Positions 1,261 to 61,995 of a stretch of DNA of 64,000 nt are shown here, piece after piece. How positions within the stretch are numbered: position 1 is the first letter of the stretch; each line of letters opens with the position of its first letter. Origin of the DNA: Bacteroidota bacterium (GTDB lineage: Bacteria; Bacteroidota; Bacteroidia; UKL13-3); assembly GCA_947485745.1 (NCBI GenBank), contig CANKQY010000003.1:13747-77746 (forward strand). The letters run 5' to 3'. Made by a program: the position numbers and the translations under genes. A model generated the notes under the pieces. The model had not been told where the DNA came from. It searched no databases and saw nothing but the letters and a program-made list of their open reading frames with translations.

Positions 1261-2493
1261 TTATAAAGCAATATCAATTTCGTTTTGCAAAAGGTCCTCA
1301 AATGTTTCTCTTTTTCTAATGATATGCGCCTGGTTATTCCAAATAAGTACTTCTGCCGGTTTGAACCTAGCGTTATAGTTACTACTCATGGTAAATCCAT
1401 AAGCTCCAGCATTTTTAAAACAAAGGATATCTCCTTCGTGCACTTCGCTTAATTTTCTATCCCAACCAAAAGTATCTGTTTCGCAGATATAGCCTACCAC
1501 GGTATAGATTCTTTGTTTTCCTTCTGGATTACTTAGGTTGATAATTGAATGGTAAGAATCGTAGAGCATTGGTCTAATCAAATGATTCATGCCGCTATCT
1601 ACTCCTACAAATACCGTTGCTGTAGTTTGTTTTAGCACGTTTACTTTTACCAAAAAGTAACCAGATTCACTAACAAGAAATTTACCTGGTTCAAACCATA
1701 ATTCTAAATCTTTGCCATACTCTTTGCAGAATTCTTGAAAACGTTGCGACAATGCGGCGGCTAGTTCTTCAATATCGGTAGTGATATCATCCTCTTTGTA
1801 ACCCACTTTAAATCCTGATCCAAAATCAACAAATTCTAAATCAAGGAAATCTTTTGCGGCATCAAATAAAATTTCTGCACCTTGTAAAAAAACACCGGGA
1901 TCAAGAATGTCGGATCCAGTATGCATATGCAAGCCGTTTACCCTGATATTGCTCGATTTTACGACGCGAGCTACATGTCTTAATTGGTATACTGAAATGC
2001 CGAATTTAGAATCGATGTGGCCTGTTGAAATTTTGGTATTTCCTCCAGCGAGAATATGCGGGTTAATGCGAATACAGCAAGGAATAGTATTGCCATATAA
2101 ATGGCCAAATTGCTCTAGGATAGAAATGTTATCTATATTAATGTGAACGCCTAATTTAACGGCCTCTTGAATCTCTTCAATGCTCACACAATTTGGGGTG
2201 AAAATAATTTCTTTGGGATCAAACCCAGCTCGCAAACCTAATAGCACTTCATTGATAGAAACGGTATCTAATCCGCTACCATGTTGTTTCAATAATTTAA
2301 GGATAGATGAATTATTTAATGCTTTGCAAGCATATTTAACCTTAATGTTTAAAGGTTTAAACGCATTGATTAAACGATTGTATTGCTCAATAATTTTATT
2401 ACCATCATAGACATATACTGGTGCGCCAAACTGATTTGAGATTTCGATTAAATTAATACCTGAAGCGGTATACTTTCCATTCACTACTTCCAT
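1261..2493 (-). CDS. lysA: Diaminopimelate decarboxylase
   Basis: Orn/DAP/Arg decarboxylase fold motifs are present: KYACKALNN (PLP lysine), HMHTGS, DFGSGFKV, GYICETDTF. I start at the internal Met MEVVNGKY (2493); the 17 extra N-terminal residues of the tracked ORF look non-native. Confidence 0.9.
   Translation of the reverse strand: MEVVNGKYTASGINLIEISNQFGAPVYVYDGNKIIEQYNRLINAFKPLNIKVKYACKALNNSSILKLLKQHGSGLDTVSINEVLLGLRAGFDPKEIIFTPNCVSIEEIQEAVKLGVHINIDNISILEQFGHLYGNTIPCCIRINPHILAGGNTKISTGHIDSKFGISVYQLRHVARVVKSSNIRVNGLHMHTGSDILDPGVFLQGAEILFDAAKDFLDLEFVDFGSGFKVGYKEDDITTDIEELAAALSQRFQEFCKEYGKDLELWFEPGKFLVSESGYFLVKVNVLKQTTATVFVGVDSGMNHLIRPMLYDSYHSIINLSNPEGKQRIYTVVGYICETDTFGWDRKLSEVHEGDILCFKNAGAYGFTMSSNYNARFKPAEVLIWNNQAHIIRKRETFEDLLQNEIDIAL
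1358..1367 (+). repeat. Iterated decamer copy GGTTTGAACC
   Basis: Exact match, followed by TA. Inside lysA, where the sense strand reads R-F-K-P. Confidence 0.95.
1688..1697 (-). repeat. Iterated decamer copy (GGTTCAAACC on the + strand)
   Basis: Exact match inside lysA; the sense strand reads tGG TTT GAA CCa (W-F-E-P). Confidence 0.95.
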
Positions 2494-2530
2494 ATCCTGC
2501 GAAAATAGGAAAAAAAATGTAATTAGCAGT

Positions 2531-2647
2531 TGGCTTCTGGCCACTAGCTTTTAATAATTTCGTAAAATAGAAAATGTATATTCTGGCTTCTCAAAATGTA
2601 AATATATTTAAATCTTGAAAAGCTAGAAGCCAGTAGCCAGAAGCCAG
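2531..2647. repeat. Cluster of CTGGCTTCT-type words in inverted arrangement in the htrA-lysA spacer
   Basis: TGGCTTCTGG is at 2531-2540 and CTGGCTTCTC at 2583-2592 on the + strand. AGAAGCCAG is at 2625-2633 and CAGAAGCCAG at 2638-2647 (reverse complement). CTAGCTTTT at 2544-2552 pairs with AAAAGCTAG at 2618-2626. Confidence 0.5.
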
Positions 2648-2657
2648 CGGTTAAAGG

Positions 2658-4106
2658 CTAAAGGCCAAATGCGTAATAGCCTTTGCTGCCGTTGGGGTTG
2701 ATGCCTTCTACTAACACACCACCTTTGTGGTTTTCGAGGTTTAGTTTAACATCGGTTATTGTGCCAATTGGTTTTTTATCAATACTTGTAAGCACAAATC
2801 CATTTGGGATACCTGCTTTTTTGAGTGGACTTTTTTCTCCTATGGATTTAATGCGCACACCATTTGGAATTTTCAATTTTAGTCTTTCTTCTCTTGGTAT
2901 ACTTTCAAATTCACAATCTAAAATTTTGTTACTTTCTATTTTTTCTACCATTGCAACATTGGCTTTGCCATCTTTATTTTTTAGCGTTGCAGTGAATTCT
3001 AATTTATTTCCTTTACGCAAAATGCCTACCAACACTTTATCGCCGGGACTTTTCTTACCTACTTTTTCTTGTAATTCATTGCTGGTATTTACATTTGCTC
3101 CATCAATGGAAATTATAACATCCCCATCTTTGATGCCTGCAGCAGCGGCAGCAGAATTTTCATTTACTTTAGCTACAAAAATTCCTTTCACATCTTTTAA
3201 TCCTTCCTTTTCTGCTAATTCGTTGTTTACATCTTGGATTTGAACGCCTAATAATCCCCTTTGAACCTCTCCATATTTCATTAAATCATCAATCACTTTT
3301 TTCATGAGGTTGGAAGGAATGGCAAATGCATATCCGGCATATTGCCCAGTTTGACTGGCAATTGCTGTATTGATGCCAATTAATTTGCCCTCGGTTGAAA
3401 CAAGTGCACCACCACTATTTCCTGGGTTAACGGCTGCATCTGTTTGAATAAATGCTTCAATGGCATACTGCGTTTCTTGATTTCGTGGGTCGCGAATTAG
3501 GTTCAAACCGCGACCTTTAGCACTAACAATACCTGCTGTTACGGTTGATGTTAGGTTAAAAGGATTACCAACTGCTAAAACCCATTGACCAATTTTTACC
3601 TCATCGGAGTTGCCTATCACAGCGAAAGGAAGGTTTTTTTCTTCAATGCGAAGGATTGCTAGATCGGTATTTCTATCTCTGCCTAATAATTCTGCATCGT
3701 ATTCTCTTTTGTCGTTTAAGATTACTTTTATTTTGTTAGCACCGTCTATCACATGATTATTGGTTACAATATAACCATCGCTTGAAATGATTACCCCAGA
3801 GCCAGAGCCTTGTCTTTCCATTTGCGGACCTTCAAAGCCGCGAAAGAAGCCTCCAAATGGGTCGTTTTCTGCACTACCTTGATTTTGATTTGGACCTATG
3901 GTAGTAATAATATGTACTACAGTTGGGGTAACCAATTCGGCAACGGCTACAAAATCTGGGTGGGAGGCATCTTGAATACTGGCATATTTTGCCAAATAAT
4001 TACTGGTGAATTTTACTTCTTCTTTGTTGCTGATTAATTTGTTTAAGCCAACGGCAATAAGTCCTCCAAGGGTTGCTATTGCGATTATTCCTAAGTACTT
4101 TTTCAT
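2658..4106 (-). CDS. htrA: Periplasmic serine endoprotease, HtrA/DegP/DegQ family, with two PDZ domains
   Basis: There is a signal/anchor sequence and the catalytic triad contexts TNNHVI (His), DLAILRI (Asp) and GNSGGALV (Ser). The C-terminal half is PDZ-like (GLLGVQIQD..., GDVIISIDG). Confidence 0.9.
   Translation of the reverse strand: MKKYLGIIAIATLGGLIAVGLNKLISNKEEVKFTSNYLAKYASIQDASHPDFVAVAELVTPTVVHIITTIGPNQNQGSAENDPFGGFFRGFEGPQMERQGSGSGVIISSDGYIVTNNHVIDGANKIKVILNDKREYDAELLGRDRNTDLAILRIEEKNLPFAVIGNSDEVKIGQWVLAVGNPFNLTSTVTAGIVSAKGRGLNLIRDPRNQETQYAIEAFIQTDAAVNPGNSGGALVSTEGKLIGINTAIASQTGQYAGYAFAIPSNLMKKVIDDLMKYGEVQRGLLGVQIQDVNNELAEKEGLKDVKGIFVAKVNENSAAAAAGIKDGDVIISIDGANVNTSNELQEKVGKKSPGDKVLVGILRKGNKLEFTATLKNKDGKANVAMVEKIESNKILDCEFESIPREERLKLKIPNGVRIKSIGEKSPLKKAGIPNGFVLTSIDKKPIGTITDVKLNLENHKGGVLVEGINPNGSKGYYAFGL
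3500..3509 (-). repeat. Iterated decamer copy (GGTTCAAACC on the + strand)
   Basis: Exact match inside htrA; the sense strand reads GGT TTG AAC CTA (G-L-N-L). Confidence 0.95.
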
Positions 4107-6022: not shown

Positions 6023-9000
6023 TTGATAGTTGTTAATACCCAACCGTTCGCTTTAATTTATTCTTTGTTTCAGCACCCAATTTTGGGGTTGTTATTAGAG
6101 CCGCATGTGGTTCAGATGAATGGCAAAGGGGCATTTACGCTCACTCATCAGCGGGTTTTTTCAAAAACAGTTGATTATTTTTCGAAAAACATACATTCGG
6201 AGGACCTCGAGCTAATAAAGATTTTAGATGAGGTGGATGATGATTTTATTTTTAAACGATACAATAAAGAAGTAAAGCGTAAAATAAGAACGGCTGAATT
6301 TTTCTCAAAATACTGCAGTAAAGAAATGGTGGAAGATCAAATTCGTCCGTTTATTGACGAGCGGATGAATCAAGTGTTTCAAATTTTGAGAGGAAGAACT
6401 ATCTATAAAAATGGAAATGACAATAATCCTACCTCAGTTAAAATAACCATTGGGGAGGTTCAGGCAAACATTTGGTTTCATTTTAAAAATAGTCCAGAAG
6501 GAATTAGGTATTACCCAACCTTGCGTTACAAGAATCAGAAAGTAGAATTTATTTATAAAGGTGCTCAAATTGTTTCAAAAACTCCTGCTTGGTTGCTTGT
6601 TGAAAACATGCTTTATGATTTTGAAAAGAATGTAGATGGTAAAAAATTATTGCCATTTATGAGCAAACGTTATATACAAATTTCTAAAAAATCTGAGGAA
6701 ACCTATCTAAGTAAATTTGTATTGCAACTGGTTGAAAAGTATGATGTGCGATCAGATTGTTTTAAGATACATACTCAGCCATCTTTTGGCAGAGCGGTAT
6801 TGAACATGCAAAATTTATTTGAGGATGAGGTTGCATTGAGGTTGCAGTTTAATTATTCGGGAATATTGTTTGACTACAATTCTGAACAGGAGGTTCATGC
6901 TCAATTATTAAAAGTTGGAGAAGAATATGCTTTTAATAAGGTTGCACGCAATAGGAAATGGGAAGATGGCAGGATGCGAGCATTATCGAGCATGGGTTTG
7001 GTTCATTCGCATTCTTGTTATTTTGTTTTGCCATCAGCAACCATTAAAAAGAAGCAAGATGATTTTTTAGGCATAGGATCATCAGATAAATATGTTTTTT
7101 TAGATTGGTTAAATACGAATTTTGAAAATTTAAAATCACAAGAAATTGATGTGGAGCAAGACCAATCACACGCAAGATTTTACATTGGCCCACGCGAGTT
7201 AAAAATAGAGGTAAAAGAGCAAAGAGATTGGTTTGATGTTCAGGCTGTAGTTCAGTTTGGGGATTATTCTTTTCCATTTATTTCGCTCAGAGAATATATC
7301 TTAAAAGGTAAGAGGGAGTTTATTTTGCCCAATGGTTTAATTGCAATTATTCCAGAAGAGTGGTTTGGAAACTTGAGTGGCGTGCTTGAATTTAGTACCA
7401 GTGATGATGACATTAAAATTGAAAAGCATCATATAGGGTTATTGGAAGAATTATCTCAAGGGGCAGGCCGGTATCTAAAAATCAATGAGAAGCTGCAGAA
7501 GATGATGTCGTATGGGGCGCTCAGAGAAATGGAAATGCCTAAAGAATTTAAAGGCACTTTAAGGCCTTATCAAAAAGCTGGATTTGATTGGTTTTATTTT
7601 TTAAAAGACAATCAATTTGGAGGGTGTTTAGCAGATGATATGGGTTTAGGTAAAACCATTCAAACTTTGGCATTGATTCAAAAGGAAAAGGAGCTTTATT
7701 TGGCTCATGTTGCAGCACAAAAAGCTCCTGAAATAAATACACCACAAATTTTAGAACCTGCCATTTTTACTGAGCATCCAGGAGTGCAATTGAGTATTTT
7801 CGACCAGCAAACTTTGGCCAATCCTCATCAGAACAAGTTATTGTATATGCAATCTGGCGGGGTTGCCCATCATAGCTTTAGCAAATCGGCAACTTTTGCT
7901 GCTAGTAACGAAACATTCATTAAAACCTCGCTTATCATTGTTCCAAATTCATTGGTTTATAATTGGGTGAATGAAGCACGAAAATTCACCCCAGGATTAA
8001 GGGTATTGGTATATACTGGAATTAATAGGATTAAAAATGCCAAGTACTTTGCAAAATATGATTTGGTGGTAACTACCTATGGAACGGTTAGGGTTGATAT
8101 TGATATTTTTAAGGAGTTTAAATTTAACTATGTAATTTTAGATGAAAGTCAGGCCATAAAAAATGCTCAGTCTCAAGTTTCAAAAGCGGTTAAATTATTA
8201 TATTCGAGTAGGAAATTGGTGCTCACTGGAACTCCGATAGAGAATAGTGTTCAAGAGTTATGGAGTCAGCTCTCTTTTGTTAATCCTGGATTGCTAGGAA
8301 GTTTACAAACTTTTACAGAACGTTTTGTACAGCCAATTGAAAGGCAAAAGGATTTAATGAAAGTTAGGCAGCTTAGAGCCATTATTAGCCCATTTATTTT
8401 AAGAAGAACCAAGGATCAAGTGGCCACAGATTTGCCTGCAAAAATGGAGCAGGTGGTATATTGTGAAATGAGTGAAGAACAAAGTGAAGCCTACGAAAAA
8501 GTGAAGTCGTATTACCGCAATGAAATCATTAAAGTAATTCGTGATATGGGGGTGAACAGGTCGCAATTTACCTTATTGCAAGGCTTAACGAAATTAAGGC
8601 AAATAGCAAATCATCCTTTGCTCGTAAACCCCGAATACGAAGGTGAAAGTGGCAAGTTTAAAGAGGTAACTTATATGGCGCAAACGGCATTGGCAGAAGG
8701 ACATAAGGTACTTATGTTTTCTCAGTTTGTTAGTCAGCTAACAATTTACAGGAAGTGGTTCGAATCGCAACAAATTCCTTATTGTTATTTAGATGGATCA
8801 ATGACCAATGATGCGAGGCAACAAATGGTTAATAAATTTCAGGATGGTAAAACGCCATTTTTTTTAATTTCACTAAAAGCAGGTGGGTTCGGTTTGAACC
8901 TAACCACTGCAGATTATGTATTTTTACTTGATCCATGGTGGAATCCTGCAGTTGAGCGTCAGGCAATAGATAGGGCGCATAGAATTGGGCAAACGCAGAA

Positions 9001-12419: not shown

Positions 12420-12851
12420 ATGAAACGTATCATTACAATGGTTGCCTTATTCGCAGCATTCGGATTTACCACCGCATTTGCTCAAATAGGAAGTGCAATG
12501 GATAAGTTGAGCAAGCAGGGATCAAAGGTAGTTGCCGATGCCCAAAAATCAACTACAGCAAGTGTTTTAGGTGAATTGGACAAACAACTTCAAAGCCAAT
12601 TCAAATTGGATGGTGTTAAGTCGCAATTAATAGGTGATGCTTTAAAAATAAAGGTTGCTGATAGCGATTTTACAAAATTATCTGCAGCTTCAAAAACCAA
12701 GCAAGGAAACGATATGTTGGGCGCTGCTTTAGGTATTTTATCGGGAAGCGGTTTGAACCTAAAAAGTTTGGGCATAAAAAATGTGATTTTGGAAATGTTT
12801 AAATCAATGAGTGTAAATGATGTGCTTTCTACAGCCAAGAAAACGCTATAG
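12420..12851 (+). CDS. Small secreted hypothetical protein
   Basis: The signal peptide is MKRIITMVALFAAFGFTTAFAQ. I recognise no motif. It is followed by a strong terminator. Confidence 0.5.
   Translation: MKRIITMVALFAAFGFTTAFAQIGSAMDKLSKQGSKVVADAQKSTTASVLGELDKQLQSQFKLDGVKSQLIGDALKIKVADSDFTKLSAASKTKQGNDMLGAALGILSGSGLNLKSLGIKNVILEMFKSMSVNDVLSTAKKTL
12750..12759 (+). repeat. Iterated decamer copy GGTTTGAACC
   Basis: Exact match inside ORF 12420; GGT TTG AAC CTA (G-L-N-L). Confidence 0.95.
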
Positions 12852-14583: not shown

Positions 14584-15744
14584 ATGGAACATCAAAAGAA
14601 AAAAATAGCCATCTTAGGCAGTACTGGGAGCATTGGTACACAAGCATTAGAAGTTGTAAGTGAGCAAAGTGATTTTTTGGAGGTAGAGGTGCTAACCGCC
14701 AACAGCAATGCCGATTTATTGATTGCCCAGGCTATAAAATTTAGGCCCAATCATGTGGTTATTGCCGATGAAAGTAAATACTTGCAAGTAAAAGAGGTTT
14801 TAGATCCACTAGATATTAAGGTTTTTGCCGGAAATAAGGCCATAGAGGAATTGATGGGTATTACCGAGGCTGATTTGGTGCTAACGGCAATGGTTGGTTA
14901 CAGCGGTTTAAAGCCTACCATTAGTGCAATTGAAAATAAAAAGAAAATAGCCTTGGCCAATAAGGAAACATTGGTGGTGGCAGGCCAATTGGTAACCAGT
15001 TTATGTGCCGAGCACAAAGTTGAACTGATTCCGGTAGATTCTGAACATTCGGCAATTTTTCAATGCTTGGTAGGTGAAGGTTTGAACCCAATTGAGCGTA
15101 TTATTTTAACTGCCTCTGGCGGTCCTTTTAGGGGGAAGCTAAGGTCAGATTTATTGGAAGTAACCAAAGCACAGGCCTTGAAACATCCTAATTGGTCTAT
15201 GGGAGCAAAAATAACCATAGATTCTGCAACCCTTATGAACAAAGGTTTAGAGGTAATTGAAGCCAAGTGGCTATTTGGATTAAGCAGGGAGCAAATTGAT
15301 GTAGTGGTGCACCCACAGTCTATCATTCATAGTATGGTTGAATTTAATGATGGCAGTATAAAAGCGCAAATGGGTTTGCCTGATATGAAGTTGCCAATAC
15401 ACTACGCATTCTTTTTTCCGCAAAGAGTTCAGTCCGATTTTAAGCGATTGAGTTTCCATGAAATTAAAACCTTAACCTTTGAAGAGCCAGATCCTATTAC
15501 CTTTAGAAATTTGGGTTTGGCTTATGAGGCAATGGAAAAGGGTGGCAATATGGCCTGTATACTCAATGCGGCCAATGAAGTTGCGGTGGAGGCCTTTTTG
15601 AAGGATAAGATAAAATTTCTGCAAATTGCTGAGTTAAATGAAAAATGTATGAACCAAGTAGGATTTATTCAAAAGCCTGACCTTAACGATTATGTGGAAA
15701 CGGATTCCGAAACGAGAAGAATTGCACTCGATTTATTGGCATAA
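14584..15744 (+). CDS. dxr: 1-deoxy-D-xylulose 5-phosphate reductoisomerase
   Basis: The ATG at 14584 gives MEHQKKKIAILGSTGSIGTQAL (NADPH-binding motif). LANKE, DSEHSAIFQC and HPNWSMG are also present. The upstream 19 codons of the tracked ORF are not needed. Confidence 0.92.
   Translation: MEHQKKKIAILGSTGSIGTQALEVVSEQSDFLEVEVLTANSNADLLIAQAIKFRPNHVVIADESKYLQVKEVLDPLDIKVFAGNKAIEELMGITEADLVLTAMVGYSGLKPTISAIENKKKIALANKETLVVAGQLVTSLCAEHKVELIPVDSEHSAIFQCLVGEGLNPIERIILTASGGPFRGKLRSDLLEVTKAQALKHPNWSMGAKITIDSATLMNKGLEVIEAKWLFGLSREQIDVVVHPQSIIHSMVEFNDGSIKAQMGLPDMKLPIHYAFFFPQRVQSDFKRLSFHEIKTLTFEEPDPITFRNLGLAYEAMEKGGNMACILNAANEVAVEAFLKDKIKFLQIAELNEKCMNQVGFIQKPDLNDYVETDSETRRIALDLLA
15079..15088 (+). repeat. 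Iterated decamer copy GGTTTGAACC
   Basis: Exact match inside dxr; GGT TTG AAC CCA (G-L-N-P). Confidence 0.95.
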
Positions 15745-15787: not shown

Positions 15788-17107
15788 ATGCAAGGATTAA
15801 TTATGGCCGCCCAACTAATATTGGGCATTTCTATACTGGTTATTTTACATGAATTTGGACATTATTTGGCTGCCCGTGCTTTTGGAATAAAAGTAGAAAA
15901 ATTCTATTTGTTTTTTGATGCTTGGGGAGTGAAATTGTTTTCGATGAAAATTGGCGATACCGAATGGGGTATTGGTTGGTTGCCTCTAGGTGGCTATGTA
16001 AAAATTGCAGGAATGATAGATGAAAGCATGGACAAAGAAGCCATGAAATTGCCTGCCCAACCTTGGGAATTTAGAAGCAAACCAGCTTGGCAACGACTCA
16101 TTGTAATGGTTGGTGGTGTAGTTGTGAATATCATCACAGGCATTGTAATTTTTGCCATGATGAGTTATTCTTATGGTGAAAAATACATTCAAAATTCATC
16201 GGTTCAAAGCGGAATAGTGCCTTCTCAAATTGCAAAAGATTGTGGCTTTATGCTAGGTGATAAATTGGTATCTGTTAATGGGTCGCCAATTTTAAGATTT
16301 GAAGAAGCGCTCAAAATAAAACATATTTTAGGTACAGAAGTTAAGTATGAGGTAGAGAGGAACGGGCAAATATTTGACGTAACCTTACCACCAGATTTTG
16401 CGAAAAAATTTAGTGATGCAAAGGCCGATTTTTTTGTGCCAAGGATGCATTTTTTTGTTGCCGAGCTAACGCCGGGATATCCAGCAGAGAAGGCAGGTTT
16501 ACAAGTAAATGATGTAATAACCAAAGTAGATAGCACAAGTTTTGAATTCTTTGATGAGTTTCAAGCATTATTGAAGGCAAACGCAGGCAAAGAGGTTGTA
16601 TTAGGCATTAACAGAAACAATGAACCTGTGTCTATAAAAGTTGCTGTTGATGAAACTGGTAGAGTAGGGTTCAAACCAGATTCAAAAGACTTTATGTTTG
16701 AGGTTGTTTCTTATTCGTTTTTCGGTTCATTTCCTGCTGGCCTCAACAAGGCAATTGAAACTATTGATGCGCAGATTAAGGGCTGGGGAAAAATATTTAA
16801 TGGTGACATTGCCGTAAATAAAGCTGTTCAAGGTCCGATAGGCATTGCCAAGTTTTATGGTGGCGAATGGATTTGGAGTAGGTTTTGGATGTTTACCGCC
16901 CTTATTTCTTTGGGTTTAGCTTTTATGAATATTCTGCCAATCCCGGCTTTAGATGGTGGTCACGTTGTTTTTTTATTAATTGAAATGATTATTGGTCGCC
17001 CATTGAGTGAGAAATTTTTGGAAGGCGCTCAATACGCTGGAATGATTATTTTACTTACCTTAATGGTGCTTATTTTTGGCAACGATATTTGGGGGCTGTT
17101 TAAGTAG
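15788..17107 (+). CDS. rseP: RIP metalloprotease RseP (site-2 protease, M50 family) with PDZ domain
   Basis: HEFGHYLAAR zinc motif, central PDZ (GLQVNDVITKVD) and C-terminal NILPIPALDGGH motif. Confidence 0.9.
   Translation: MQGLIMAAQLILGISILVILHEFGHYLAARAFGIKVEKFYLFFDAWGVKLFSMKIGDTEWGIGWLPLGGYVKIAGMIDESMDKEAMKLPAQPWEFRSKPAWQRLIVMVGGVVVNIITGIVIFAMMSYSYGEKYIQNSSVQSGIVPSQIAKDCGFMLGDKLVSVNGSPILRFEEALKIKHILGTEVKYEVERNGQIFDVTLPPDFAKKFSDAKADFFVPRMHFFVAELTPGYPAEKAGLQVNDVITKVDSTSFEFFDEFQALLKANAGKEVVLGINRNNEPVSIKVAVDETGRVGFKPDSKDFMFEVVSYSFFGSFPAGLNKAIETIDAQIKGWGKIFNGDIAVNKAVQGPIGIAKFYGGEWIWSRFWMFTALISLGLAFMNILPIPALDGGHVVFLLIEMIIGRPLSEKFLEGAQYAGMIILLTLMVLIFGNDIWGLFK
16668..16677 (-). repeat. Iterated decamer copy (GGTTCAAACC on the + strand)
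   Basis: Exact match inside rseP; gGG TTC AAA CCa (G-F-K-P). Confidence 0.95.
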
Positions 17108-17790: not shown

Positions 17791-17800
17791 GGTTCGAACC
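17791..17800. repeat. Iterated decamer, perfect palindrome form GGTTCGAACC
   Basis: Exact match in the intergenic tag/purB spacer, 5 nt upstream of the candidate purB -7 box. Confidence 0.95.
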
Positions 17801-17827: not shown

Positions 17828-19171
17828 ATGGAATTAGAAGCATTAACGGCAATTTCCCCAATTGATGGGCGATACAGAAAACAGACTGAAAAGTTGGGTG
17901 ATTATTTTAGCGAGTTTGCATTAATAAAATACAGGGTTTGGGTTGAAATTGAATATTTTATAGCCTTGGCGGAAATGCCCTTACCACAATTAAAGGATAA
18001 GGTTAGTAGTGATCAAAAGGCGGCCATTAGAGGCATTTATCATAACTTAAGTTTGGTTCAGGCTAAGAAAATAAAGGACATTGAAAAAACCACCAACCAT
18101 GATGTAAAGGCGGTAGAATACTTTATTAAGGATGAATTCGCAGCAATTGGTTTAAAAGAGGCATCAGAGTTTGTGCACTTTGGTTTAACCTCTCAAGATA
18201 TTAATAATACAGCTATACCCATGAGTTTAAAACATGCCATTGAGTTGGAAGTTTTGCCCCTTTTACAAAATGTATTGGCCATTATGAAGCAGCAAGCTAT
18301 AGATTGGGCAAATATTCCAATGCTTGCTAGAACTCACGGACAGCCCGCCTCACCAACTAGATTGGGAAAAGAATGGGAGGTATTTATATCAAGAATCAAT
18401 GTTCAATTGAATCAGATAAATCAGCTTACCTATCCAGCAAAATTTGGAGGTGCAACAGGAAACTACAATGCACATGTGGTGGCCTACCCTGAAATAAATT
18501 GGCTAGAATTTGGCGATAAATTTTGCGGTCATTTAGGTTTGAACCGATCGCATCCTACCACACAAATAGAGCATTATGATAACTTAGCAGCCTTGTTTGA
18601 TGGTTTTAAAAGAATCAATACAATTTTGCTTGATTTTGCAAAAGATGTATGGCAATATGTGGCCATGGATTATTTTAAGCAAAGGTTGAAAGAAGGGGAG
18701 GTTGGATCAAGCGCAATGCCTCATAAAGTTAATCCAATAGATTTTGAAAATGCGGAAGGAAATCTTGGAATTGCCAACGTTTTTTATGCGCATTTTTCAG
18801 AAAAATTGCCCATCTCTAGGTTGCAAAGAGATTTAACTGATAGCACCGTTTTAAGGAATATTGGAATGCCATTTGCACATACCACTATAGCTTTAAAATC
18901 ATTGGAAAAGGGTTTGGGAAAGTTGTTATTGAACGAACAAAAATTACACAATGATTTAGAAAATAATTGGGCAGTTGTGGCAGAGGCTATTCAAACAATT
19001 TTGAGAAGGGAAGGATTTGACAGGCCATACGAGGCTTTAAAAGCGCTCACCAGAACCAATGAAGCTATCACCCAACAATCAATTCAAGAATTTATTGTTA
19101 CCTTGCAAGTATCTGAGGAGGTAAAAGCTGAGCTAAATAATATTACACCTCACAATTATACTGGGATATGA
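17828..19171 (+). CDS. purB: Adenylosuccinate lyase
   Basis: The ATG at 17828 gives MELEALTAISPIDGRYR. The lyase_1 signature GSSAMPHKVNP is present. The tracked ORF starts 6 codons earlier at a TTG. Confidence 0.92.
   Translation: MELEALTAISPIDGRYRKQTEKLGDYFSEFALIKYRVWVEIEYFIALAEMPLPQLKDKVSSDQKAAIRGIYHNLSLVQAKKIKDIEKTTNHDVKAVEYFIKDEFAAIGLKEASEFVHFGLTSQDINNTAIPMSLKHAIELEVLPLLQNVLAIMKQQAIDWANIPMLARTHGQPASPTRLGKEWEVFISRINVQLNQINQLTYPAKFGGATGNYNAHVVAYPEINWLEFGDKFCGHLGLNRSHPTTQIEHYDNLAALFDGFKRINTILLDFAKDVWQYVAMDYFKQRLKEGEVGSSAMPHKVNPIDFENAEGNLGIANVFYAHFSEKLPISRLQRDLTDSTVLRNIGMPFAHTTIALKSLEKGLGKLLLNEQKLHNDLENNWAVVAEAIQTILRREGFDRPYEALKALTRTNEAITQQSIQEFIVTLQVSEEVKAELNNITPHNYTGI
18536..18545 (+). repeat. 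Iterated decamer copy GGTTTGAACC
   Basis: Exact match inside purB; GGT TTG AAC CGA (G-L-N-R). Confidence 0.95.
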
Positions 19172-25202: not shown

Positions 25203-25997
25203 TTGAGGAACTTATTGAATATTGTTGTGCTATTGCTTTTGGGATTTAACACTGCCATTGCCGCTGAAGAGAAGCCAATTCAATTGAATAAAATTAATTT
25301 AACGCCAATGCCATTGGATGGTTGGCGCTTTGGTTTTGGACTAGGATATGCCCTTTATGTGGGCGACCAAATGGATTATGCTTTAACAAGAAATTATGGC
25401 GATTTTAAAGAACTTCGTACAAACTTGACGATTGCTGCCTTCAAGCAAATTAACGAAGAAAAAGAGTGGGGTTTGGTTTTTAAAACAGGTTCTTTTCAAA
25501 CCTTAAAATCTAGCAATACCCAAGGATTACAGTGTAATTACCAAGAACTACAATCAATTTGGCAAAAAAGCTTAAACGACAATATTGATTTGAATGGTAA
25601 AGCGGTAACGGTTAATTTTCAATATGGTTTAGGATTTATGTATTATAAAAGCAAGTATTTTGCAGTGAATTCAAATTTTAAATCAGAAGATTATGTCATT
25701 TCTAGTGTTGGTTATGGATTTGAAAACAGAAAAGATTTTAAGGGAAATGAATATACTGATATTCCTAATAAAAAGTTTGCTGCTTTGGGCAATATCGGTT
25801 TGAACCTAGGTTTTAGAATAGCAGGTAATCTTAGTTTGTATTTTGAAAATAGTCTTCAAGTATCTGTTACCAACAAATTATCTGGGCACTTAAATAAATT
25901 AGCTAAAATTCCACCTGATATGTATTTTTATACAGGACTAAGTTTATTTTATAAATTCGGTAAGGGAGGCAGCAGGTTAGGTTGTCCAAAATTTTAA
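25203..25997 (+). CDS. Putative outer-membrane beta-barrel protein, paralog A (C-terminal LGCPKF)
   Basis: Signal peptide, alternating beta-strand-like sequence and a C-terminal Phe. ~35-40% identical by eye to the next ORF. TTG start. Confidence 0.55.
   Translation: MRNLLNIVVLLLLGFNTAIAAEEKPIQLNKINLTPMPLDGWRFGFGLGYALYVGDQMDYALTRNYGDFKELRTNLTIAAFKQINEEKEWGLVFKTGSFQTLKSSNTQGLQCNYQELQSIWQKSLNDNIDLNGKAVTVNFQYGLGFMYYKSKYFAVNSNFKSEDYVISSVGYGFENRKDFKGNEYTDIPNKKFAALGNIGLNLGFRIAGNLSLYFENSLQVSVTNKLSGHLNKLAKIPPDMYFYTGLSLFYKFGKGGSRLGCPKF
25797..25806 (+). repeat. Iterated decamer copy GGTTTGAACC
   Basis: Exact match inside OM barrel paralog A; GGT TTG AAC CTA (G-L-N-L). Confidence 0.95.
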
Positions 25998-29096: not shown

Positions 29097-30406
29097 GAAA
29101 TCCTTGTTATATCTGCACCAATGGCCCTTAGTCTTTCATCAATATTTTGATAGCCTCTGTCTATTTGTTCAATGTTATTGATGGTACTTGTACCTTGAGC
29201 AGCCATTGCCGCAATGAGCATTGAAACACCTGCTCTAATATCAGGTGAAGACATGTTAATACCTCTTAGTTTTGTTTCACGGTTTGAACCAATAACAACT
29301 GCTCGGTGTGGATCGCATAGGATGATTTTTGCTCCCATATCTATTAGGTTATCTACAAAGAATAACCTGCTTTCGAACATCCATTGATGAATTAAAACAC
29401 TGCCTTTGGCTTGGGTTGCGGTAACAAGTGCCACTGAGATTAAATCTGGGGTAAACGCAGGCCAAATGCCATCCTTAATTGTAAGTATTGAACCATCAAT
29501 GAGGGTTTCAATTTTATATGAATCTTGTTGGGGAACTCTGATATCATCGCCATTAAATTCCAGCTGAATTCCCATACGTTGAAAAACTTTTGGGATCAAA
29601 CCGAGACTTGGTATTGCACAGTTTTTGATTGTAATATCAGAGTTAGTAGCGGCAGCCAAACCAATGAAACTACCAATCTCAATCATGTCTGGCAACATGG
29701 TATGTTTGCATCCACCAAGAGATTGCACCCCTTCAATATTTAATAGGTTTGAACCAATCCCCATTATTTTTGCACCCATGCTATTGAGCATTTTGCAGAG
29801 TTGTTGAATATAGGGTTCGCTTGCAGCATTGTAAATACTTGTTTTACCATTGGCCAAACATGCTGCCATTAAAATATTTGCAGTGCCTGTAACAGACGCT
29901 TCGTCTAACAACATATTGGCACCTTTTAACTCTTTGCCATTGATTTTATAAAAGCGTTCATGGTGCATGTGTTCAAAGGTTGCTCCCAAATTTTCGAATC
30001 CTCTTAAATGAGTATCAACAGGTCTTCTACCAATTTTATCGCCACCAGGTTCTGGGATATAAGCCAGGCCAAAGCGGGCTAAAAGCGGACCAATTATCAT
30101 AATTGAACCACGCAGGCTGGCACCTTTTGTTTTAAAATCATCGCTTAATAAATAATCGAGATTTACATTTTTTGCTTTAAATATATAGGTGGTATCATTT
30201 AGTTTTTTTACCTCAACACCCATAGCTTCCAATAGCTCAATTAATTTCATTACATCCCTAATTACAGGAATGTTTGAGATTTCAACTTCTTCAGCAGTGA
30301 GTAATACAGCTGATAGAATTTGTAATGCTTCATTTTTGGCCCCTTGTGGTGTAATTTCTCCTTTTAATTGTTTTCCGCCTATTACTTTAAATGATCCCAT
30401 ATTCAT
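29093..30406 (-). CDS. murA: UDP-N-acetylglucosamine 1-carboxyvinyltransferase
   Basis: The whole length reads as an EPSP-synthase-fold MurA. The active-site loop is PEPGGDKIGRRPVDTH, with Asp at the position of E. coli Cys115. Confidence 0.93.
   Translation of the reverse strand: MNMGSFKVIGGKQLKGEITPQGAKNEALQILSAVLLTAEEVEISNIPVIRDVMKLIELLEAMGVEVKKLNDTTYIFKAKNVNLDYLLSDDFKTKGASLRGSIMIIGPLLARFGLAYIPEPGGDKIGRRPVDTHLRGFENLGATFEHMHHERFYKINGKELKGANMLLDEASVTGTANILMAACLANGKTSIYNAASEPYIQQLCKMLNSMGAKIMGIGSNLLNIEGVQSLGGCKHTMLPDMIEIGSFIGLAAATNSDITIKNCAIPSLGLIPKVFQRMGIQLEFNGDDIRVPQQDSYKIETLIDGSILTIKDGIWPAFTPDLISVALVTATQAKGSVLIHQWMFESRLFFVDNLIDMGAKIILCDPHRAVVIGSNRETKLRGINMSSPDIRAGVSMLIAAMAAQGTSTINNIEQIDRGYQNIDERLRAIGADITRIS
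29281..29290 (+). repeat. Iterated decamer copy GGTTTGAACC
   Basis: Exact match inside murA (minus strand); the sense strand reads GGT TCA AAC CGT (G-S-N-R). Confidence 0.95.
29746..29755 (+). repeat. Iterated decamer copy GGTTTGAACC
   Basis: Exact match inside murA (minus strand); the sense strand reads GGT TCA AAC CTA (G-S-N-L). Confidence 0.95.
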
Positions 30407-39937: not shown

Positions 39938-42900
39938 ATGAATATACGAATACTAAGCATTTATTTATTATTAATTATTTCCTCCGCTGCAAGTGCTCAA
40001 AATATTAAGGGAACAGTTAAGGATGTTGGGGGCGATGCCGTTATTGGAGCTACTGTTCAGGTTGAAGGTTCTTCATATGGCGCAGTTACTGATGTTTTAG
40101 GTTTTTTTGAGGTAAAGAAGCTCAGGAAGGGGAATTATAAACTTAAAATTTCTTCTGTAGGCTTGGCAACAACTTTTAAAGAGGTAACTTTAGGCGAGTC
40201 AGATATTACCGTTGCTGTGGTTATGAAAGAAGATCGCGAGCAAATGGATGAATTAGTTGTGGTTGGATATGGTGTGCAACGAAAAAGGGAAGTTACAGGA
40301 GCCATTTCTAAAATTGGGGGTAAAGAATTAAACGATTTACCCGTGCCAAGTTTTGAGGCCGCCCTTCAAGGAAAGGCGCCGGGAGTGCAAATTACGGTTG
40401 GCAGTGGTTTAGCTGGCTCAGCTTCCATTGTGCGTATAAGAGGTATATCATCTATTAGTGCGGGTGGAGATCCATTGTATGTTGTGGATGGAATACCTAT
40501 CACGCAAGATTATTTTATCAATGGTAATTCTGGAGGAATGAATAATAATCCTTTAGCAACTATTAATCCCGATGACATTGAAAGCGTGGAAGTATTGAAA
40601 GATGCCGCGGCAAATGCTATATACGGATCAAGAGGTGCAAATGGTGTAATTATTATTACCACAAAACGTGGTAAAGGCAAAGGATGGAAATTAGGTGCAC
40701 AAATGAAAGCTGGTGTTTCAGTGCCAACAGCTCGACCAAAAATGTTGAACAACAAAGAATGGATGCAAATAAACCAAGAAGCTTGGGAAAATGATGGGTT
40801 TTCTGGAATAGCACCATTGCCAGGAGGATTAACTCAAGAGCAGGCCATGGCCAATAATACCAATTGGGTGGATCAAACCATTCAAACAGGTAGCAAATAT
40901 GGTTTTAATTTTTCTGCAACTAAAGGAGGAGAAAAAGTTAATACCTATGTTAATTTTTCTCATGATTACAACGGCTCCTTTTTAGTAGGTAACTCATACA
41001 TTAGAACTGCAGGAAGGATTAACTTAGATTACAATGCCACCCAATGGTTAAAAATTGGGATTAATAGTTCAATTAGCAGAGGTATAAATAATAGAGTAAA
41101 TGCCGCATGGTCTGGCGGATTAGGAGCAGCAATGAGCACAGCCTTGCCAATTTACCCGGTTAAAAATGCCGATGGAACATGGTTTAGAAGTGGTAATAAC
41201 CCTACAAGAATGATGGAAAATATGCTCTGGCAAACCACAGAATTAAGGGCTTTAAACGGTTTGAACCTAACGCTAACACCAATCAAGGACGTTGTTATTC
41301 AGGGTCAAACTAGCTATGATTACATGGATCAAAAAGACGATCAATGGCGTTCATCTGAGATTACAGGTAATGCAAATAAAGGAGATGCCTCGAGGGGAAT
41401 GTCGTTTGTGAAAAATTTTAATTATTTTATTACAGCCTCGTACCTAAAAACAATCAATGAAAAACACAGTATTCAGGTTTTGGTTGGAAATGAATACCAA
41501 AGAGCAAATACAATCAGAAGAAGCGCCGACTCTACCAATGTTGGGGGTTTATTTAAGGATAATTACCAAGATTACCTTGAAGCAAGATACTTGTCTCAGC
41601 CAGGAGTAAACTGGGGTTTTTTAAGTTATTTTGCTAGGGCAAATTATAACTTCAAGCAAAAATATTTTGTACAAGGTGTTTTTAGAACGGATGCATCATC
41701 AAGGTTTGGTTCAAACTACCGTTGGGCAAGTTTTCCTTCATTATCTGCAAGTTGGATTTTATCTGAAGAAAATTTTATGAAAGGAAACAAAGTATTTAGT
41801 TTCTTAAAATTAAGAGCGGGTTGGGGTAAAACAGGTAATGCAAATATTCCAGATGATGCCAGGTATGCAACTTATTCTAGTAGTTCAAACAATGTAACTT
41901 ATAACGGACAAGGAACTTTATTTCCTCTAAAATTAGAGAACAGAAATGTGAGATGGGAAACTACCAACAATTATGATGCAGCAATTGAGGCTGGTTTTTT
42001 CAAGGATAGATTAACAGTTGAAGTAGATGTTTACAGAAAAGTTACCTCTGATGTATTGATGTTTTTAACTATACCTCAGTCAATTGGTTTTAGTCAATAT
42101 TGGGATAATGTGGGAGGTATCTTGAACCAAGGAATAGAATTTAGTTTTAAATCAAAAAATATTATCACTAAAGATTTTCAATGGAGTACTAATTTCAATG
42201 TTGCAAGAAATTTCAATGAAATCACCAGTATTGGTGTTTATTCTGAAGACGCTGTTAGTGGTGGAACAAACGATACAAGGGTTGTAGTTGGACAACCTGT
42301 TGGTACCAATTATTTAATTCGTTGGTCGCATGTAGATCCTGCAACTGGTAGGCCAGTATATTTAGATATCAATGGCAACCAAACATTTGATTACGATAAT
42401 AAAAACAGAACAGCTGTGGGTAAAATTATACCTGATGCAATTGGTGGTTTAACCAACACCTTCCGTTATAAGCAATGGGACATGAGTGTTTTGGTTATTT
42501 TCAGTCTTGGTTCAAACATATATGAATCTTCGCAAAAGCGCCAATCAACTTTAGTTACAGATTGGAATATGGATGAGCGTGTATATGACCGTTGGCAAAA
42601 ACCAGGCGATATTGCTAAATACCCTCGTTTAACAAGGGACTTTAGAACTTACGATTTACCAGATGAATGGAGTAATACCACGCTATGGCTAAAAGATGGA
42701 AGCTATGCGCGTTTAAGAAACTTAACCATTGGCTACAATATGGCTTCGGCTCGTTGCAAGAAAATGAGAATTTCGAGCATGCGTATTTCTGCAATTGCCA
42801 CAAATTTATTTACCTTAACTAATTTTGATGGCTTAGATCCGGAAATTGGTAGAGACTCAGAGGGTGGATCATCAGGAGATTTAAATAGTTCAAGAAATTT

Positions 42901-46419: not shown

Positions 46420-46429
46420 GGTTTGAACC
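46420..46429 (+). repeat. Iterated decamer copy GGTTTGAACC (intergenic)
   Basis: Exact match in the 22-nt spacer between the convergent PAP2 and TonB-receptor genes. Confidence 0.95.
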
Positions 46430-48740: not shown

Positions 48741-48750
48741 GGTTCAAACC
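48741..48750 (-). repeat. Iterated decamer copy (GGTTCAAACC on the + strand, intergenic)
   Basis: Exact match 26 nt upstream of the TonB-receptor start codon, in inverted orientation relative to the 46420 copy. Confidence 0.95.
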
Positions 48751-55595: not shown

Positions 55596-55600
55596 AGATT

Positions 55601-57521: not shown

Positions 57522-57533
57522 TGTTTAACTAGT

Positions 57534-58775: not shown

Positions 58776-58841
58776 CTTGCCTTTTGGTATTTCGTTAAAA
58801 AAAATGCTCTTTTGTCTTTTATCCTAAACTAATGTGCTTCT

Positions 58842-60817: not shown

Positions 60818-60861
60818 GGTGTTTTAAGCATTTCTATTTATATTGTGCCTGTATTATACTC

Positions 60862-61431
60862 ATGAACGATTTAAATTATTTTAATTACCTAAAAACCAGA
60901 AGCAAACTAGCATTATTTTACAGAAAAAATATTGTTTACCCAGCTTTAATGAGGGAACTTACTGGCAAAGTTTTAGATATCGGCTGTGGCATTGGCGATT
61001 TTTTAATGTGCAGGCCAAACACGGTTGGAATTGACATTAACCAATTAAATGTAAATCATTGCAAAGAACAGGGTTGGGAGGTGTATTCAATTGATAATAA
61101 TCAATTTCCATTTTCAGAAAATACTTTTGATGGAGCCATTTTAGATAATGTGTTAGAGCATTTAACTGAACCAAATATAACTTTGCTTGAAGCAAAAAGA
61201 GTTCTAAAAAACAGCGGTAAGTTAATTGTTGCAGTGCCGGGTACTAAAGGTTACACAATGGATGATGACCACAAACATTTTTATGATGAAGCAGAAATGA
61301 ATACTTTATTAGCTAGTTTTGGTTTTGTAAATATCAAGTATGTTTATCGCCCTACGTTTTTCAAATCAACTTATTTTAGCAAAAAGTTGTCACAGTATTG
61401 TATTTATGGAGTATTCGAACTCCAAAAATAA
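60862..61431 (+). CDS. Class I SAM-dependent methyltransferase
   Basis: Motif I VLDIGCGIGDF and post-I/II D..F.FSENTFDGAILDNVLEH. Confidence 0.85.
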   Translation: MNDLNYFNYLKTRSKLALFYRKNIVYPALMRELTGKVLDIGCGIGDFLMCRPNTVGIDINQLNVNHCKEQGWEVYSIDNNQFPFSENTFDGAILDNVLEHLTEPNITLLEAKRVLKNSGKLIVAVPGTKGYTMDDDHKHFYDEAEMNTLLASFGFVNIKYVYRPTFFKSTYFSKKLSQYCIYGVFELQK

Positions 61432-61437
61432 GTTACG

Positions 61438-61995
61438 TTAGGCTATTTTCTCAATGGTTTTGGTACGAGTATTATAAATATCTAAACCCTTTAAAAGCTT
61501 TAATCTGTCGGGACCTGTGGCAAAAGTTAGTTGGCCTCCTTGGTTCCTACTTTCTCTAAATTTAGATGCTACATAACCTTGCTCTGCACTTAATGCTGGA
61601 AGTTGTTTAAGTTTATCTTTTCTTACAAAATAGGCATTATTGCCTGCTCGGTTCGAACCGATAAATGCATATCCCTTTTCTTCTGCAAGATCGCAATATG
61701 AAAGCAAAGAGCAACCGCAATATAAATGACTATGGTGTTTGTTTTGCCTTACAAAATCTGCTTCATATGGAATTGTCCAGGCTTGGTTCGAGCCAAAAAT
61801 ACTATTGTATTCCATTATTACTAAGGTTGGATTTATGCAGGTAATGGCGTTCCAAATATGGTAATCATTGCCATCAATATCAATATGCAATAGGCCAAGT
61901 TTATTAGCAAAGCCAGCTTCAGAATTTTGTTTGTTTATAGCTGATAAAACTTGGCTATTTAGCAGTTTTACTGACTCTATTTGTTTAATTATCAA
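61438..61995 (-). CDS. Hypothetical protein, opposite strand to the rest of the polysaccharide locus; possibly N-terminally truncated
   Basis: It starts at TTG, with no upstream in-frame ATG before a stop ~15 codons upstream. It contains LLHIDIDGNDYHIW, which I cannot confidently assign to a family. Confidence 0.4.
   Translation of the reverse strand: MIIKQIESVKLLNSQVLSAINKQNSEAGFANKLGLLHIDIDGNDYHIWNAITCINPTLVIMEYNSIFGSNQAWTIPYEADFVRQNKHHSHLYCGCSLLSYCDLAEEKGYAFIGSNRAGNNAYFVRKDKLKQLPALSAEQGYVASKFRESRNQGGQLTFATGPDRLKLLKGLDIYNTRTKTIEKIA
61650..61659. repeat. Iterated decamer, perfect palindrome form GGTTCGAACC
   Basis: Exact match inside the reverse-strand orphan ORF; the sense strand reads GGT TCG AAC CGA (G-S-N-R). 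Confidence 0.95.

Follow-up and report, generated by a model that had tools for sequence, protein, structure and literature searches.

The window, by which we mean the whole 64-kb stretch of this Bacteroidia MAG that was analysed, contains 18 exact copies of the decamer GGTTYRAACC, about one per 3.6 kb, and no other 10-mer is as common in it. Eleven copies read GGTTTGAACC, five read GGTTCAAACC and two are the perfect palindrome GGTTCGAACC. Two of them lie in an Orn/DAP decarboxylase gene on the minus strand (1261-2544): GGTTTGAACC at 1358..1367 (+), where the coding strand encodes FKP, and GGTTCAAACC, as read on the plus strand, at 1688..1697 (−), which encodes FEP and whose orthologous site is GGTTCGAACC in the relatives L081, L082, L084 and L085. 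Gly-Leu-Asn is encoded, always in one frame, by eight of the 15 copies found in CDSs. These are the copies in the genes for an HtrA-like protease (3500..3509, −), an SNF2 helicase (8891..8900, +; kept in L081 and L085), a 143-aa hypothetical protein (12750..12759, +; kept in L084), adenylosuccinate lyase (18536..18545, +; kept in L084 and L086), a 264-aa hypothetical protein (25797..25806, +; the orthologues retain G-L-N in other codons), a GH97 protein (36690..36699, −; kept in L011, L013, L014 and L017) and a SusC-like TonB-dependent receptor (41258..41267, +), together with the copy in dxr (15079..15088, +), which is lineage-specific, the orthologous positions of relatives holding unrelated sequence. 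The M50/RseP protease gene has a copy that encodes FKP (16668..16677, −), and murA, on the minus strand, has two, at 29281..29290 (+) and 29746..29755 (+). A TPR protein gene on the minus strand carries the word at 34750..34759 (+), with VQT on the coding strand; this copy is kept in L001 and has one mismatch in several relatives. A perfect palindrome in a 185-aa hypothetical gene on the minus strand (61650..61659) encodes Gly-Ser-Asn. The other palindrome lies in the intergenic stretch that separates tag from the divergent purB (17791..17800; kept in L084), and the two remaining intergenic copies occupy the 22-bp gap between convergent PAP2 and TonB receptor genes (46420..46429, +) and the interval between divergent genes for a TonB receptor and a Wza-like exporter (48741..48750, −).

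The genes concerned are unrelated, as the first-pass annotation had reported. Its 18 positions and the 14 one-mismatch copies that it listed are all present, and our recount gave the same six occurrences of the 12-mer GGTTTGAACCTA and the same preference for C at −1 (10 of the 16 TG/CA copies). The window holds no tRNA and no Rfam family, and it encodes no DNA-uptake, competence, pilus or uptake-receptor gene and no DNA methyltransferase. Its sole methyltransferase domain (60862-61431) is of the small-molecule type and lies inside a polysaccharide cluster, which has lower GC and only partial synteny in relatives. A search of ten window proteins against NCBIfam (eight without a Pfam match and two newly scanned) returned nothing relevant.

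Enrichment of the word over chance

Expected numbers were obtained in several ways. A dinucleotide shuffle of the window yields 0.25 copies (maximum 2) as against the 18 observed, and Markov models of order 0-5 predict 0.08-1.0 copies of the TG form with both strands counted. When synonymous codons are shuffled with proteins and codon usage preserved, 1.45 ± 0.92 copies are expected (maximum 5) as against the 15 found in CDSs; shuffling of codon order gives 0.25. In 61 outgroup species, 941 kb of homologous DNA contains 13 copies, a rate of 0.88 per 64 kb (Poisson P = 7e-18). Enrichment across four different nulls is thus 10- to 70-fold, in line with the strong enrichment claimed earlier, and the codon-aware ratio of observed to expected, for which the first-pass annotation had named a value near 1-2 as refuting, is about 10. 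The excess extends to degenerate copies, with 48 matches at one mismatch or fewer as against 7.1 expected in the window. TTCGAA alone is neither enriched nor avoided (24 occurrences; 23-32 expected under Markov orders 1-4).

The word uses five combinations of reading frame and orientation and also occurs in intergenic DNA, which accounts for three of the 18 copies and only 4% of the window; it is therefore a word at the DNA level. Flanking sequence is random beyond about 4 nt, with pairwise identity of 28% from −50 to −5 and 27% from +5 to +50 where 27% is expected at random, and therefore no mobile element is involved. These observations support the earlier proposal of a short word selected at the DNA level rather than a MITE, and the longer shared repeat that had been named as its other possible refutation is not seen. 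The copies are a word at the DNA level, kept or created against codon drift. Spacing of the 18 copies shows no regularity (CV 0.88) and is indistinguishable from random. The polysaccharide cluster contains none of the 18 (post-hoc p=0.02; largest-gap test p=0.28), so that depletion of the word in accessory DNA is only suggestive.

Shape, dialects and conservation of the motif

Relatives were compared over three syntenic regions, which together span about 64 kb in this genome and 20-60 kb in each relative, and many of the site counts take in orthologous, non-independent sites. In these regions the word is confined to freshwater Bacteroidia MAGs that form a single monophyletic clade. Its density in word-rich lineages is fairly even, at 1.1-3.3 per 10 kb, the L015/L087 genome and L016 are word-poor sisters, and in the same proteins of the 61 outgroup species it is 20 times rarer. 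The murA gene illustrates this distribution: of 20 clade genomes and 61 outgroup genomes, 14 and 5, respectively, carry the word at the codons of the invariant GSNR peptide (aa 373; 29281..29290), and 17 and 1 carry it at those of the invariant GSNL peptide (aa 218; 29746..29755). The codons of both peptides are fixed as the word in the clade, whereas those of the outgroup drift freely; third-position identity at fourfold-type codons is only 35-50% among most clade members. Alignments of orthologous sites show the word at in-frame positions where relatives differ by base substitutions, with sites gained and lost rapidly, lineage by lineage. No evidence for word-rich phages came from a scan of viral contigs with TCGGTTTGAACCWAA, in which none of 95 loci had more than two words. 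A metagenome scan with TCGGTTYGAACCTAA returned at least 120 contigs, mostly unrelated and of 0.3-0.63 GC, with at most two words each among the matches listed.

The full motif is a 14-bp dyad, T-c-GGTT-YR-AACC-w-A (TnGGTTYRAACCnA). T occupies −2 in 36 of 53 TG-form sites and A occupies +12 in 49 of 53; of the CG-form half-sites, 51 of 58 carry A at +12 (with T at −2). An origin of the flank asymmetry in codon usage was considered and rejected: the preference for C at −1 and for A at +12 persists where the coding orientation is reversed, and also between genes. The only central dinucleotides found are CG and its single-deamination products TG and CA, TA being present at none of about 97 sites in the per-lineage table.

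The central dinucleotide differs between sister lineages, and two dialects, CG and TG, are shown by the site counts. The difference was first seen in L003-L008, where it rested on the conserved pair of sites in MurA, and two further syntenic regions gave independent support. Counts of TG/CA to CG are 16:2 in the window, 11:0 in L011+L184 and 11:3 in L014+L085 on the TG side, and 1:6 in L003+L081+L183 and 1:6 in L006+L082 on the CG side (Fisher p=4e-5, with sites partly non-independent). The MurA sites and the site at window position 1688 were ancestrally CG and have become TG/CA in the window lineage. Codon and tripeptide usage is likewise shown to be pulled towards the word. Of 55 Gly-Leu-Asn tripeptides in TG genomes, 27 are written as GGTTTGAACC; the figures are 1/23 for CG genomes and 0/78 for the outgroup. 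The tripeptide itself is 2.4 times commoner in TG genomes than in the same region of the outgroup. In CG lineages the word is the perfect palindrome, and Gly-Leu-Asn is almost never recruited; Val-Arg-Thr is written as the CG word in 2/5 versus 0/10 cases. Interaction of uptake sequences with the host proteome has been described (PMC2817400).

Candidate origins of the word

The most likely reading, which we put forward tentatively, is that the word is a lineage-specific 'self' tag, built up by a step of DNA uptake or recombination that is sequence-specific. Such a tag would be written into the chromosome by nucleotide substitution. The recognition step would act on duplex DNA, through a protein with two-fold symmetry or through one that reads the word equally well on both strands, and would belong to the uptake or recombination of conspecific DNA, that is, to natural transformation; fragments bearing the word would be preferentially taken up or integrated, and molecular drive would then multiply the copies. 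The USS of Pasteurellaceae and the DUS of Neisseria are parallels, and a similar process has recently been proposed for methylated HIP1 in cyanobacteria. The two dialects could then reflect a change in the central base that the recogniser accepts, namely C (possibly m5C) in CG lineages and T in TG lineages. In favour of this reading are the enrichment, the occurrence in both orientations and in intergenic DNA, the random flanks, the base substitutions at orthologous sites, the dyad flanks, the restriction to one clade, the codons fixed in murA, the dialects with their imprint on codons and tripeptides, and the lack of strand polarity. Against it, known DUS and USS are asymmetric and the present motif is a dyad, and the window encodes no uptake or competence gene. 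Sequence alone fits both uptake drive and purifying selection on a cis-acting site. Elsewhere in the phylum, uptake competition with Riemerella columbina revealed a preference for self-DNA, and no DUS has been identified in that species (PMC7965970). A bolder version, possible but doubtful as a whole, holds that the word would be the first watermark of the uptake-signal/HIP type in Bacteroidota, a methylation-linked recognition of self-DNA that arose independently of HIP1, with the 14-bp dyad recognised in natural transformation of an abundant and uncultured freshwater lineage, dialects of m5C-G versus T-G in which the 5-methyl group of thymine would mimic m5C, and a species barrier between sister lineages.

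A HIP-type ratchet of methylation and repair that operates independently of uptake is an unlikely alternative. A methyltransferase for the palindrome, combined with methyl- or sequence-directed repair or nicking, would tilt mismatch correction towards the cognate sequence and so spread the palindrome by biased gene conversion, and the TG dialect would be the deaminated m5C-G centre in tolerant lineages. The restriction of centres to CG and TG/CA, without TA, and the conversion of ancestral CG at MurA and position 1688 agree with this scheme; a palindromic 14-bp consensus suits Type-II-like dimeric enzymes, and there is precedent in Elhai's ratchet model and in the association of HIPs with methyltransferases. 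However, TG sites also arise de novo at conserved Gly-Leu-Asn positions, where no passage via a CG (Ser) state is possible, and therefore the TG form is the target itself and not just a product of decay. Moreover, biases of the very-short-patch type are modest and concern one position rather than a word of 10-14 bp, and the behaviour of TTCGAA as such, neither enriched nor avoided, is not what the ratchet would lead one to expect.

Alternatively, the word might be a cis-acting chromosomal site under purifying selection, bound by a dimeric protein that needs a site every 3-4 kb for nucleoid organisation, segregation, control of replication or repair, or self-marking for a defence system. We assign this explanation a low probability. 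Dyad symmetry, conservation at orthologous synonymous positions, the fairly even density in word-rich lineages and the intergenic share of copies (three of 18 in the 4% of the window that is non-coding) are what it predicts, but the irregular spacing is not. Known sites of this kind (parS, matS, NBS and SBS) number tens per genome as against an estimated several hundred here, and the rapid gain and loss of sites, the change of dialect and the recruitment of about half of the Gly-Leu-Asn codons are more like a genome-wide drive than like selection acting site by site.

Strand polarity bears on a further candidate, a Chi-like recombination or anti-degradation signal for AddAB/RecBCD that, being palindromic, would work from either side. 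About 75% of Chi sites and more than 90% of KOPS are co-oriented with replication. In favour of the candidate, the copies are nominally split 11:5 by strand on a stretch along which cumulative GC skew climbs monotonically, and one word per 3.6 kb is close to the density of Chi in E. coli. The split is not significant, however, and it disappears among 36 independent site families from syntenic DNA of relatives (20:16 by strand, p=0.62). The word is thus without strand polarity, a point against Chi or KOPS and in agreement with the first-pass annotation, where weak polarity had been taken to favour a USS/HIP-like over a Chi/KOPS-like role. In addition, known Chi sequences are asymmetric, 5-8 nt long, several-fold enriched and not fixed at synonymous sites across species, and the symmetric flanks found here point to duplex recognition. 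A Chi-like signal is accordingly very improbable.

The two weakest explanations can be dismissed briefly. A by-product of protein sequence, of codon or codon-pair usage, or of chance, for which the eight Gly-Leu-Asn copies in one frame might speak, is refuted by the codon-preserving shuffle, the 20-fold rarity in the same outgroup proteins, the absence of the word from all 78 outgroup Gly-Leu-Asn codons and the existence of copies in other frames, in reverse complement and between genes. An origin in a dispersed mobile element (MITE/REP) or in tRNA-derived sequence, the latter suggested solely by the resemblance of GGTTCGAACC to the tRNA T-arm/B-box GGTTCGAnnCC, is refuted with equal firmness by the random flanks, by in-frame copies in conserved genes that differ from relatives by base substitutions, and by the lack of any tRNA or Rfam family in the window.

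Comparison with known systems

The searchable literature yielded no report of the word in Bacteroidota; the matches to it, in primers, tRNA or ribozyme constructs and a 23S rRNA homing site, are coincidences. Sequence-tagged self-DNA is established only in two proteobacterial families (USS and DUS) and has been proposed for cyanobacteria (HIP1). If the self-tag reading is true, Bacteroidota would provide a third independent case, which would suggest that watermarks are a recurrent solution, and natural transformation or another sequence-specific DNA transaction would be predicted in a dominant uncultured lake lineage. An exact motif is now available for uptake, pull-down and methylome work, and the word is a marker of practical use in binning, in recognising newly acquired DNA and in defining the recombination barriers that separate sister species.

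Chi, KOPS and AIMS resemble the word in being short, in occurring about once per 4 kb and in being scattered through genes. By contrast with them, the word has no polarity, is dyad-symmetric, is far more enriched and is fixed at synonymous sites across species.

The likeness to HIP1 of cyanobacteria (GCGATCGC; other HIPs include GGGATCCC and TCGATCGA) is closer. Both are short and hyper-abundant in coding and non-coding DNA, and both have spread by substitution without indels, with conserved orthologous sites and lineage-specific variants; the function of HIP1 was long a puzzle and is now linked to transformation. HIP1 proper is nevertheless a different word, from a different phylum than this Bacteroidia MAG. 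The word described here is longer (a 10-bp core in a 14-bp dyad) and, at about one per 3.6 kb, sparser than HIP1 in HIP1-rich cyanobacteria, and its main form in the window is an imperfect palindrome with a TG/CA centre, the perfect palindrome being dominant only in CG-dialect lineages.

DUS and USS differ from the word in that they are asymmetric and read by a pilin (a minor pilin for DUS), have a density of about 1 per kb rather than 1 per 3.6 kb, and, in the case of DUS, are often paired in inverted orientation in terminators, an arrangement not seen for the word. Like these 9-12-mers, the word is over-represented in both orientations, within genes (where most copies lie) and outside them, both in the 64-kb window and in the three regions of relatives, and its consensus is graded, with many one-mismatch copies. 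It also shares with them its clade specificity and its interplay with the proteome (PMC2817400). Finally, related lineages of Neisseriaceae carry DUS dialects that differ by one base (PMC3630211), and the word, on sites that are partly non-independent, is similarly restricted to a clade and divided into dialects.

Abundance of the word and the level of its constraint

The decamer GGTTYRAACC (the word) occurs 18 times in the window: 11 times as GGTTTGAACC, five times as its reverse complement GGTTCAAACC (together the TG form) and twice as the perfect palindrome GGTTCGAACC (the CG form). All 18 copies lie exactly where the first-pass annotation had placed them, and the TA-centred form is absent from the window. 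The word ranks first among the window's 10-mers, above every A/T-rich word, and 48 matches with at most one mismatch were found versus 7.1 expected, including all 14 one-mismatch near-copies recorded in the first pass. Recounting likewise returned six occurrences of GGTTTGAACCTA and a C at position −1 in 10 of the 16 TG-form copies. Gene calls and annotation placed 15 of the 18 copies inside coding sequences (CDSs) of unrelated genes, as proposed (a decarboxylase, HtrA, an SNF2 helicase, Dxr, RseP, PurB, MurA, a TPR protein, GH97, SusC and others).

Four nulls of rising severity agree on an excess of the word over chance. Dinucleotide shuffles of the window yielded 0.25 copies (maximum 2) compared with the 18 observed, and Markov models of order 0–5 on both strands predicted 0.08–1.0 TG-form copies versus 16, the higher-order expectations being already raised by the word's own copies. 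When synonymous codons were permuted among all genes, with every protein sequence and overall codon usage preserved, 1.45 ± 0.92 copies (maximum 5) resulted versus 15 in CDSs, so the claimed enrichment holds under a codon-aware null; shuffling codon order gave an expectation of 0.25. By comparison, 61 outgroup species together have 13 copies in 941 kb of homologous DNA from the MurA region, a rate of 0.88 per 64 kb (Poisson P = 7 × 10⁻¹⁸).

When copies were aligned on the word, pairwise flank identity was 28% (−50 to −5) and 27% (+5 to +50), against 27% at random; a mobile element was rejected on this ground, and the flanks are unconserved, as first reported. An RNA reading was rejected because neither tRNA genes nor matches to Rfam families were found in the window. 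The coding strand reads GGT-TTG-AAC (Gly-Leu-Asn) in eight copies and xGG-TTT-GAA-CC (Phe-Glu-Pro) in one; the reverse complement is read in three frames, as Gly-Ser-Asn, Phe-Lys-Pro and Val-Gln-Thr; and three copies are intergenic, although non-coding DNA makes up only 4% of the window. A protein motif was rejected given these several frames and orientations and the intergenic copies. Taken together with the random flanks and the lack of tRNA or Rfam families, they indicate that the constraint acts on DNA, in support of the original proposal. Simple explanations from composition, translation or mobile elements all fail.

The right half of the word is better conserved than the left (TTTGAACC, 34 occurrences in the window, versus GGTTTGAA, 20). 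Among non-identical sites pooled from the window and relatives, the TG form is flanked by T at −2 (36/53), C at −1 (30/53) and A at +12 (49/53), preferences that also hold in either coding orientation and at intergenic sites. The CG form has A at +12 (with T at −2) in 51 of 58 half-sites. With flanks of this kind in both forms, the motif is thus a 14-bp dyad, T-c-GGTT-YR-AACC-w-A. Its symmetry suggests that duplex DNA is recognised by a protein of two-fold symmetry, or else that a reader meets an identical word on each strand.

Orthologous sites and taxonomic range

The window derives from an uncultured freshwater Bacteroidia MAG with MurA relatives 98–99% identical in lake metagenomes; by MurA, 'Bacteroidetes bacterium UKL13-3' is more distantly related. 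Among 80 MurA loci (L001–L080, each GTDB species represented by one genome), enrichment of the word is confined to L001–L019, whose MurA identity is 85% or higher; L020–L080 essentially lack it. A MurA neighbour-joining tree groups the word-rich genomes in a single clade. Most of its members share only ~70–75% DNA identity with the window, and third-position identity among most of them is 35–50% at MurA fourfold-type codons. Within this clade, one genome (L015/L087, joined by a 100% overlap) has no copies in ~31 kb and another (L016) has only the two MurA copies; these word-poor sisters would be especially well suited to tracing the genes responsible by phylogenetic profiling.

The MurA peptides GSNL (residue 218) and GSNR (residue 373) hardly vary across the 80 species, the one exception being the residue that follows GSN at the first site. 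Outgroup codons at both sites drift freely (GGN, TCN/AGY, AAY), whereas the clade keeps GGT-TC[A/G]-AAC-C. The GSNL site carries the word in 17 of 20 clade genomes versus 1 of 61 outgroup genomes (Fisher p = 1.5 × 10⁻¹³), and the GSNR site in 14 of 20 versus 5 of 61 (p = 1.6 × 10⁻⁷). The remaining orthologous sites likewise mix conservation with lineage-specific gain and loss. Gains are synonymous where the peptide permits, with an occasional amino-acid change (G-A-N to G-S-N in L082).

The conserved palindromic copy at 17791 lies in the tag–purB intergenic region. The adjoining 3-methyladenine glycosylase gene (Tag, 17173–17733) is shared with L084 and missing at this position in L081–L083, L085 and L086. 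A small variable spot adjoins conserved housekeeping genes at 200–1252, where the window has an HTH-Fic gene and several of L081, L082, L084 and L085 have a HerA/DUF87-type ATPase gene, upstream of the decarboxylase gene.

Other repeats were seen in relatives. In the outgroup MAG locus L036 (OZ257140.1, 5765–7439), arrays of ~50-, 100- and 146-nt units each contain a small palindrome, CACCCTTTCAGGGT; L053 has similar words, and this family comprises local repeats unrelated to the word. Nor do the intergenic tandem arrays of L083 (377–1247 and 13033–13203), L013 (19268–19569) and L017 (19095–19439) bear any relation to it, their units being CCCAAAG-like 7-mers (~100 copies), ATGAATT (24), 22-nt (14) and 42-nt (8) repeats. 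Six short metagenome contigs of 55–63% GC (L205, L230, L253, L255, L269 and L282), from unrelated organisms outside this clade, have two 10-mer copies within a few kilobases, possibly resembling tRNA T-arms or belonging to some other repeat. Pattern scans of viral and metagenome contigs told little: none of 95 viral loci has more than two copies of the word, giving no sign of word-rich phages, and the metagenome matches listed (at least 120 contigs, mostly unrelated, of 0.3–0.63 GC) have two copies each at most.

CG and TG dialects

Loci L003–L008 at first showed only GGTTCGAACC, but those counts covered just two MurA sites, and they were extended with two further syntenic regions from relatives. 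The TG/CA:CG ratio is 16:2 in the window, 11:0 in one genome (L011 and L184), 11:3 in another (L014 and L085), 7:3 in B1(2017) (L084 and L185) and 4:0 in L086, compared with 1:6 in each of two CG groups (the L003-like lineage, comprising L003, L081 and L183; and L006 with L082); several counts pool orthologous sites, and the grouping into lineages rests partly on overlaps. The window differs from the two CG groups with a Fisher p of 4 × 10⁻⁵, some sites being orthologous.

TG genomes write 27 of 55 Gly-Leu-Asn as GGTTTGAACC (8/18 for the window by itself), compared with 1 of 23 in CG genomes and 0 of 78 in the outgroup. The palindrome accounts for 8 of 17 Gly-Ser-Asn, 4 of 12 Phe-Glu-Pro and 2 of 5 Val-Arg-Thr in CG genomes; TG genomes do not use the word for Val-Arg-Thr (0 of 10). 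Leu is conserved at many Gly-Leu-Asn sites; decay from CG copies was therefore rejected for the TG copies there, since a CG centre would encode Ser, and the TG form itself must be generated. Codon recruitment thus shows that the dialects reflect a real difference in specificity, not mutational equilibrium. Compared over the same genomic region, the peptides themselves are commoner in TG genomes than in outgroup ones (2.4 times for Gly-Leu-Asn, ~3 times for Val-Gln-Thr), so the word has shaped protein sequences as well.

Candidate mechanisms and known systems

In the material analysed (64 kb of this genome, with ~20-kb pieces of related genomes from three syntenic regions), the patterns show a clade-specific process that recognises a 10–14-bp dyad. 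It writes copies throughout genes by substitution and maintains them, and its specificity takes two forms among sister lineages. The leading candidate, favoured tentatively, is a sequence-specific step in the uptake or recombination of conspecific DNA: fragments with the word would be favoured, and the word would accumulate as a self-DNA tag. As a speculation on the CG/TG difference at the centre, the C may be 5-methylated in CG lineages, with T, which has the same 5-methyl group, as its substitute in TG lineages. The window encodes neither competence nor DNA methyltransferase genes.

Two alternatives appear unlikely, to the same degree. One is a methylation–repair ratchet with no role in uptake. 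The other is a cis-acting site of a dimeric chromosomal protein, maintained by selection. Cumulative GC skew rises over the entire window, which is thus probably on one replichore. The first-pass annotation called the 11:5 strand split weakly polar; the split exists but is not significant, and in syntenic DNA the TG sites fall into 36 independent families, which divide 20:16 by strand (p = 0.62) and 21:13 by coding strand (p = 0.23). A bidirectional Chi-like signal is improbable.

Spacing of the 18 copies is not regular (CV 0.88). None falls in the Wza-to-Wzy polysaccharide cluster at 48.9–61.4 kb (post hoc p = 0.02; largest-gap test p = 0.28), where GC is lower (0.32–0.34); relatives likewise have few copies there (2 in 29 kb). 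This region (48886–61431; Wza, Wzz, flippase, DegT, glycosyltransferase and Wzy genes) is syntenic in L183 and L185, differs in gene content in L184 and the contig carrying P0245, and is probably an exchangeable surface-polysaccharide locus.

Literature searches turned up neither this word nor an iterated palindrome or uptake sequence of any kind for Bacteroidota, in keeping with the earlier view that no described system uses it. Riemerella columbina, also of this phylum, prefers its own DNA in uptake competition, and no uptake sequence was found there (PMC7965970). By sequence and taxon the word lies outside the HIP1, USS and DUS families, yet in behaviour it is of their kind. On genome pattern it is a candidate uptake sequence; the defining features of that class would be biased uptake and a receptor. 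USS and DUS are thought to accumulate by the same kind of uptake or recombination bias as that proposed here; DUS dialects have been described (PMC3630211), uptake sequences and proteomes interact (PMC2817400), and the word's dialect structure and proteome imprint match theirs. The closest analogue is HIP1, which, like the word, is palindromic, spreads by substitution, is conserved at orthologous sites and has lineage variants.
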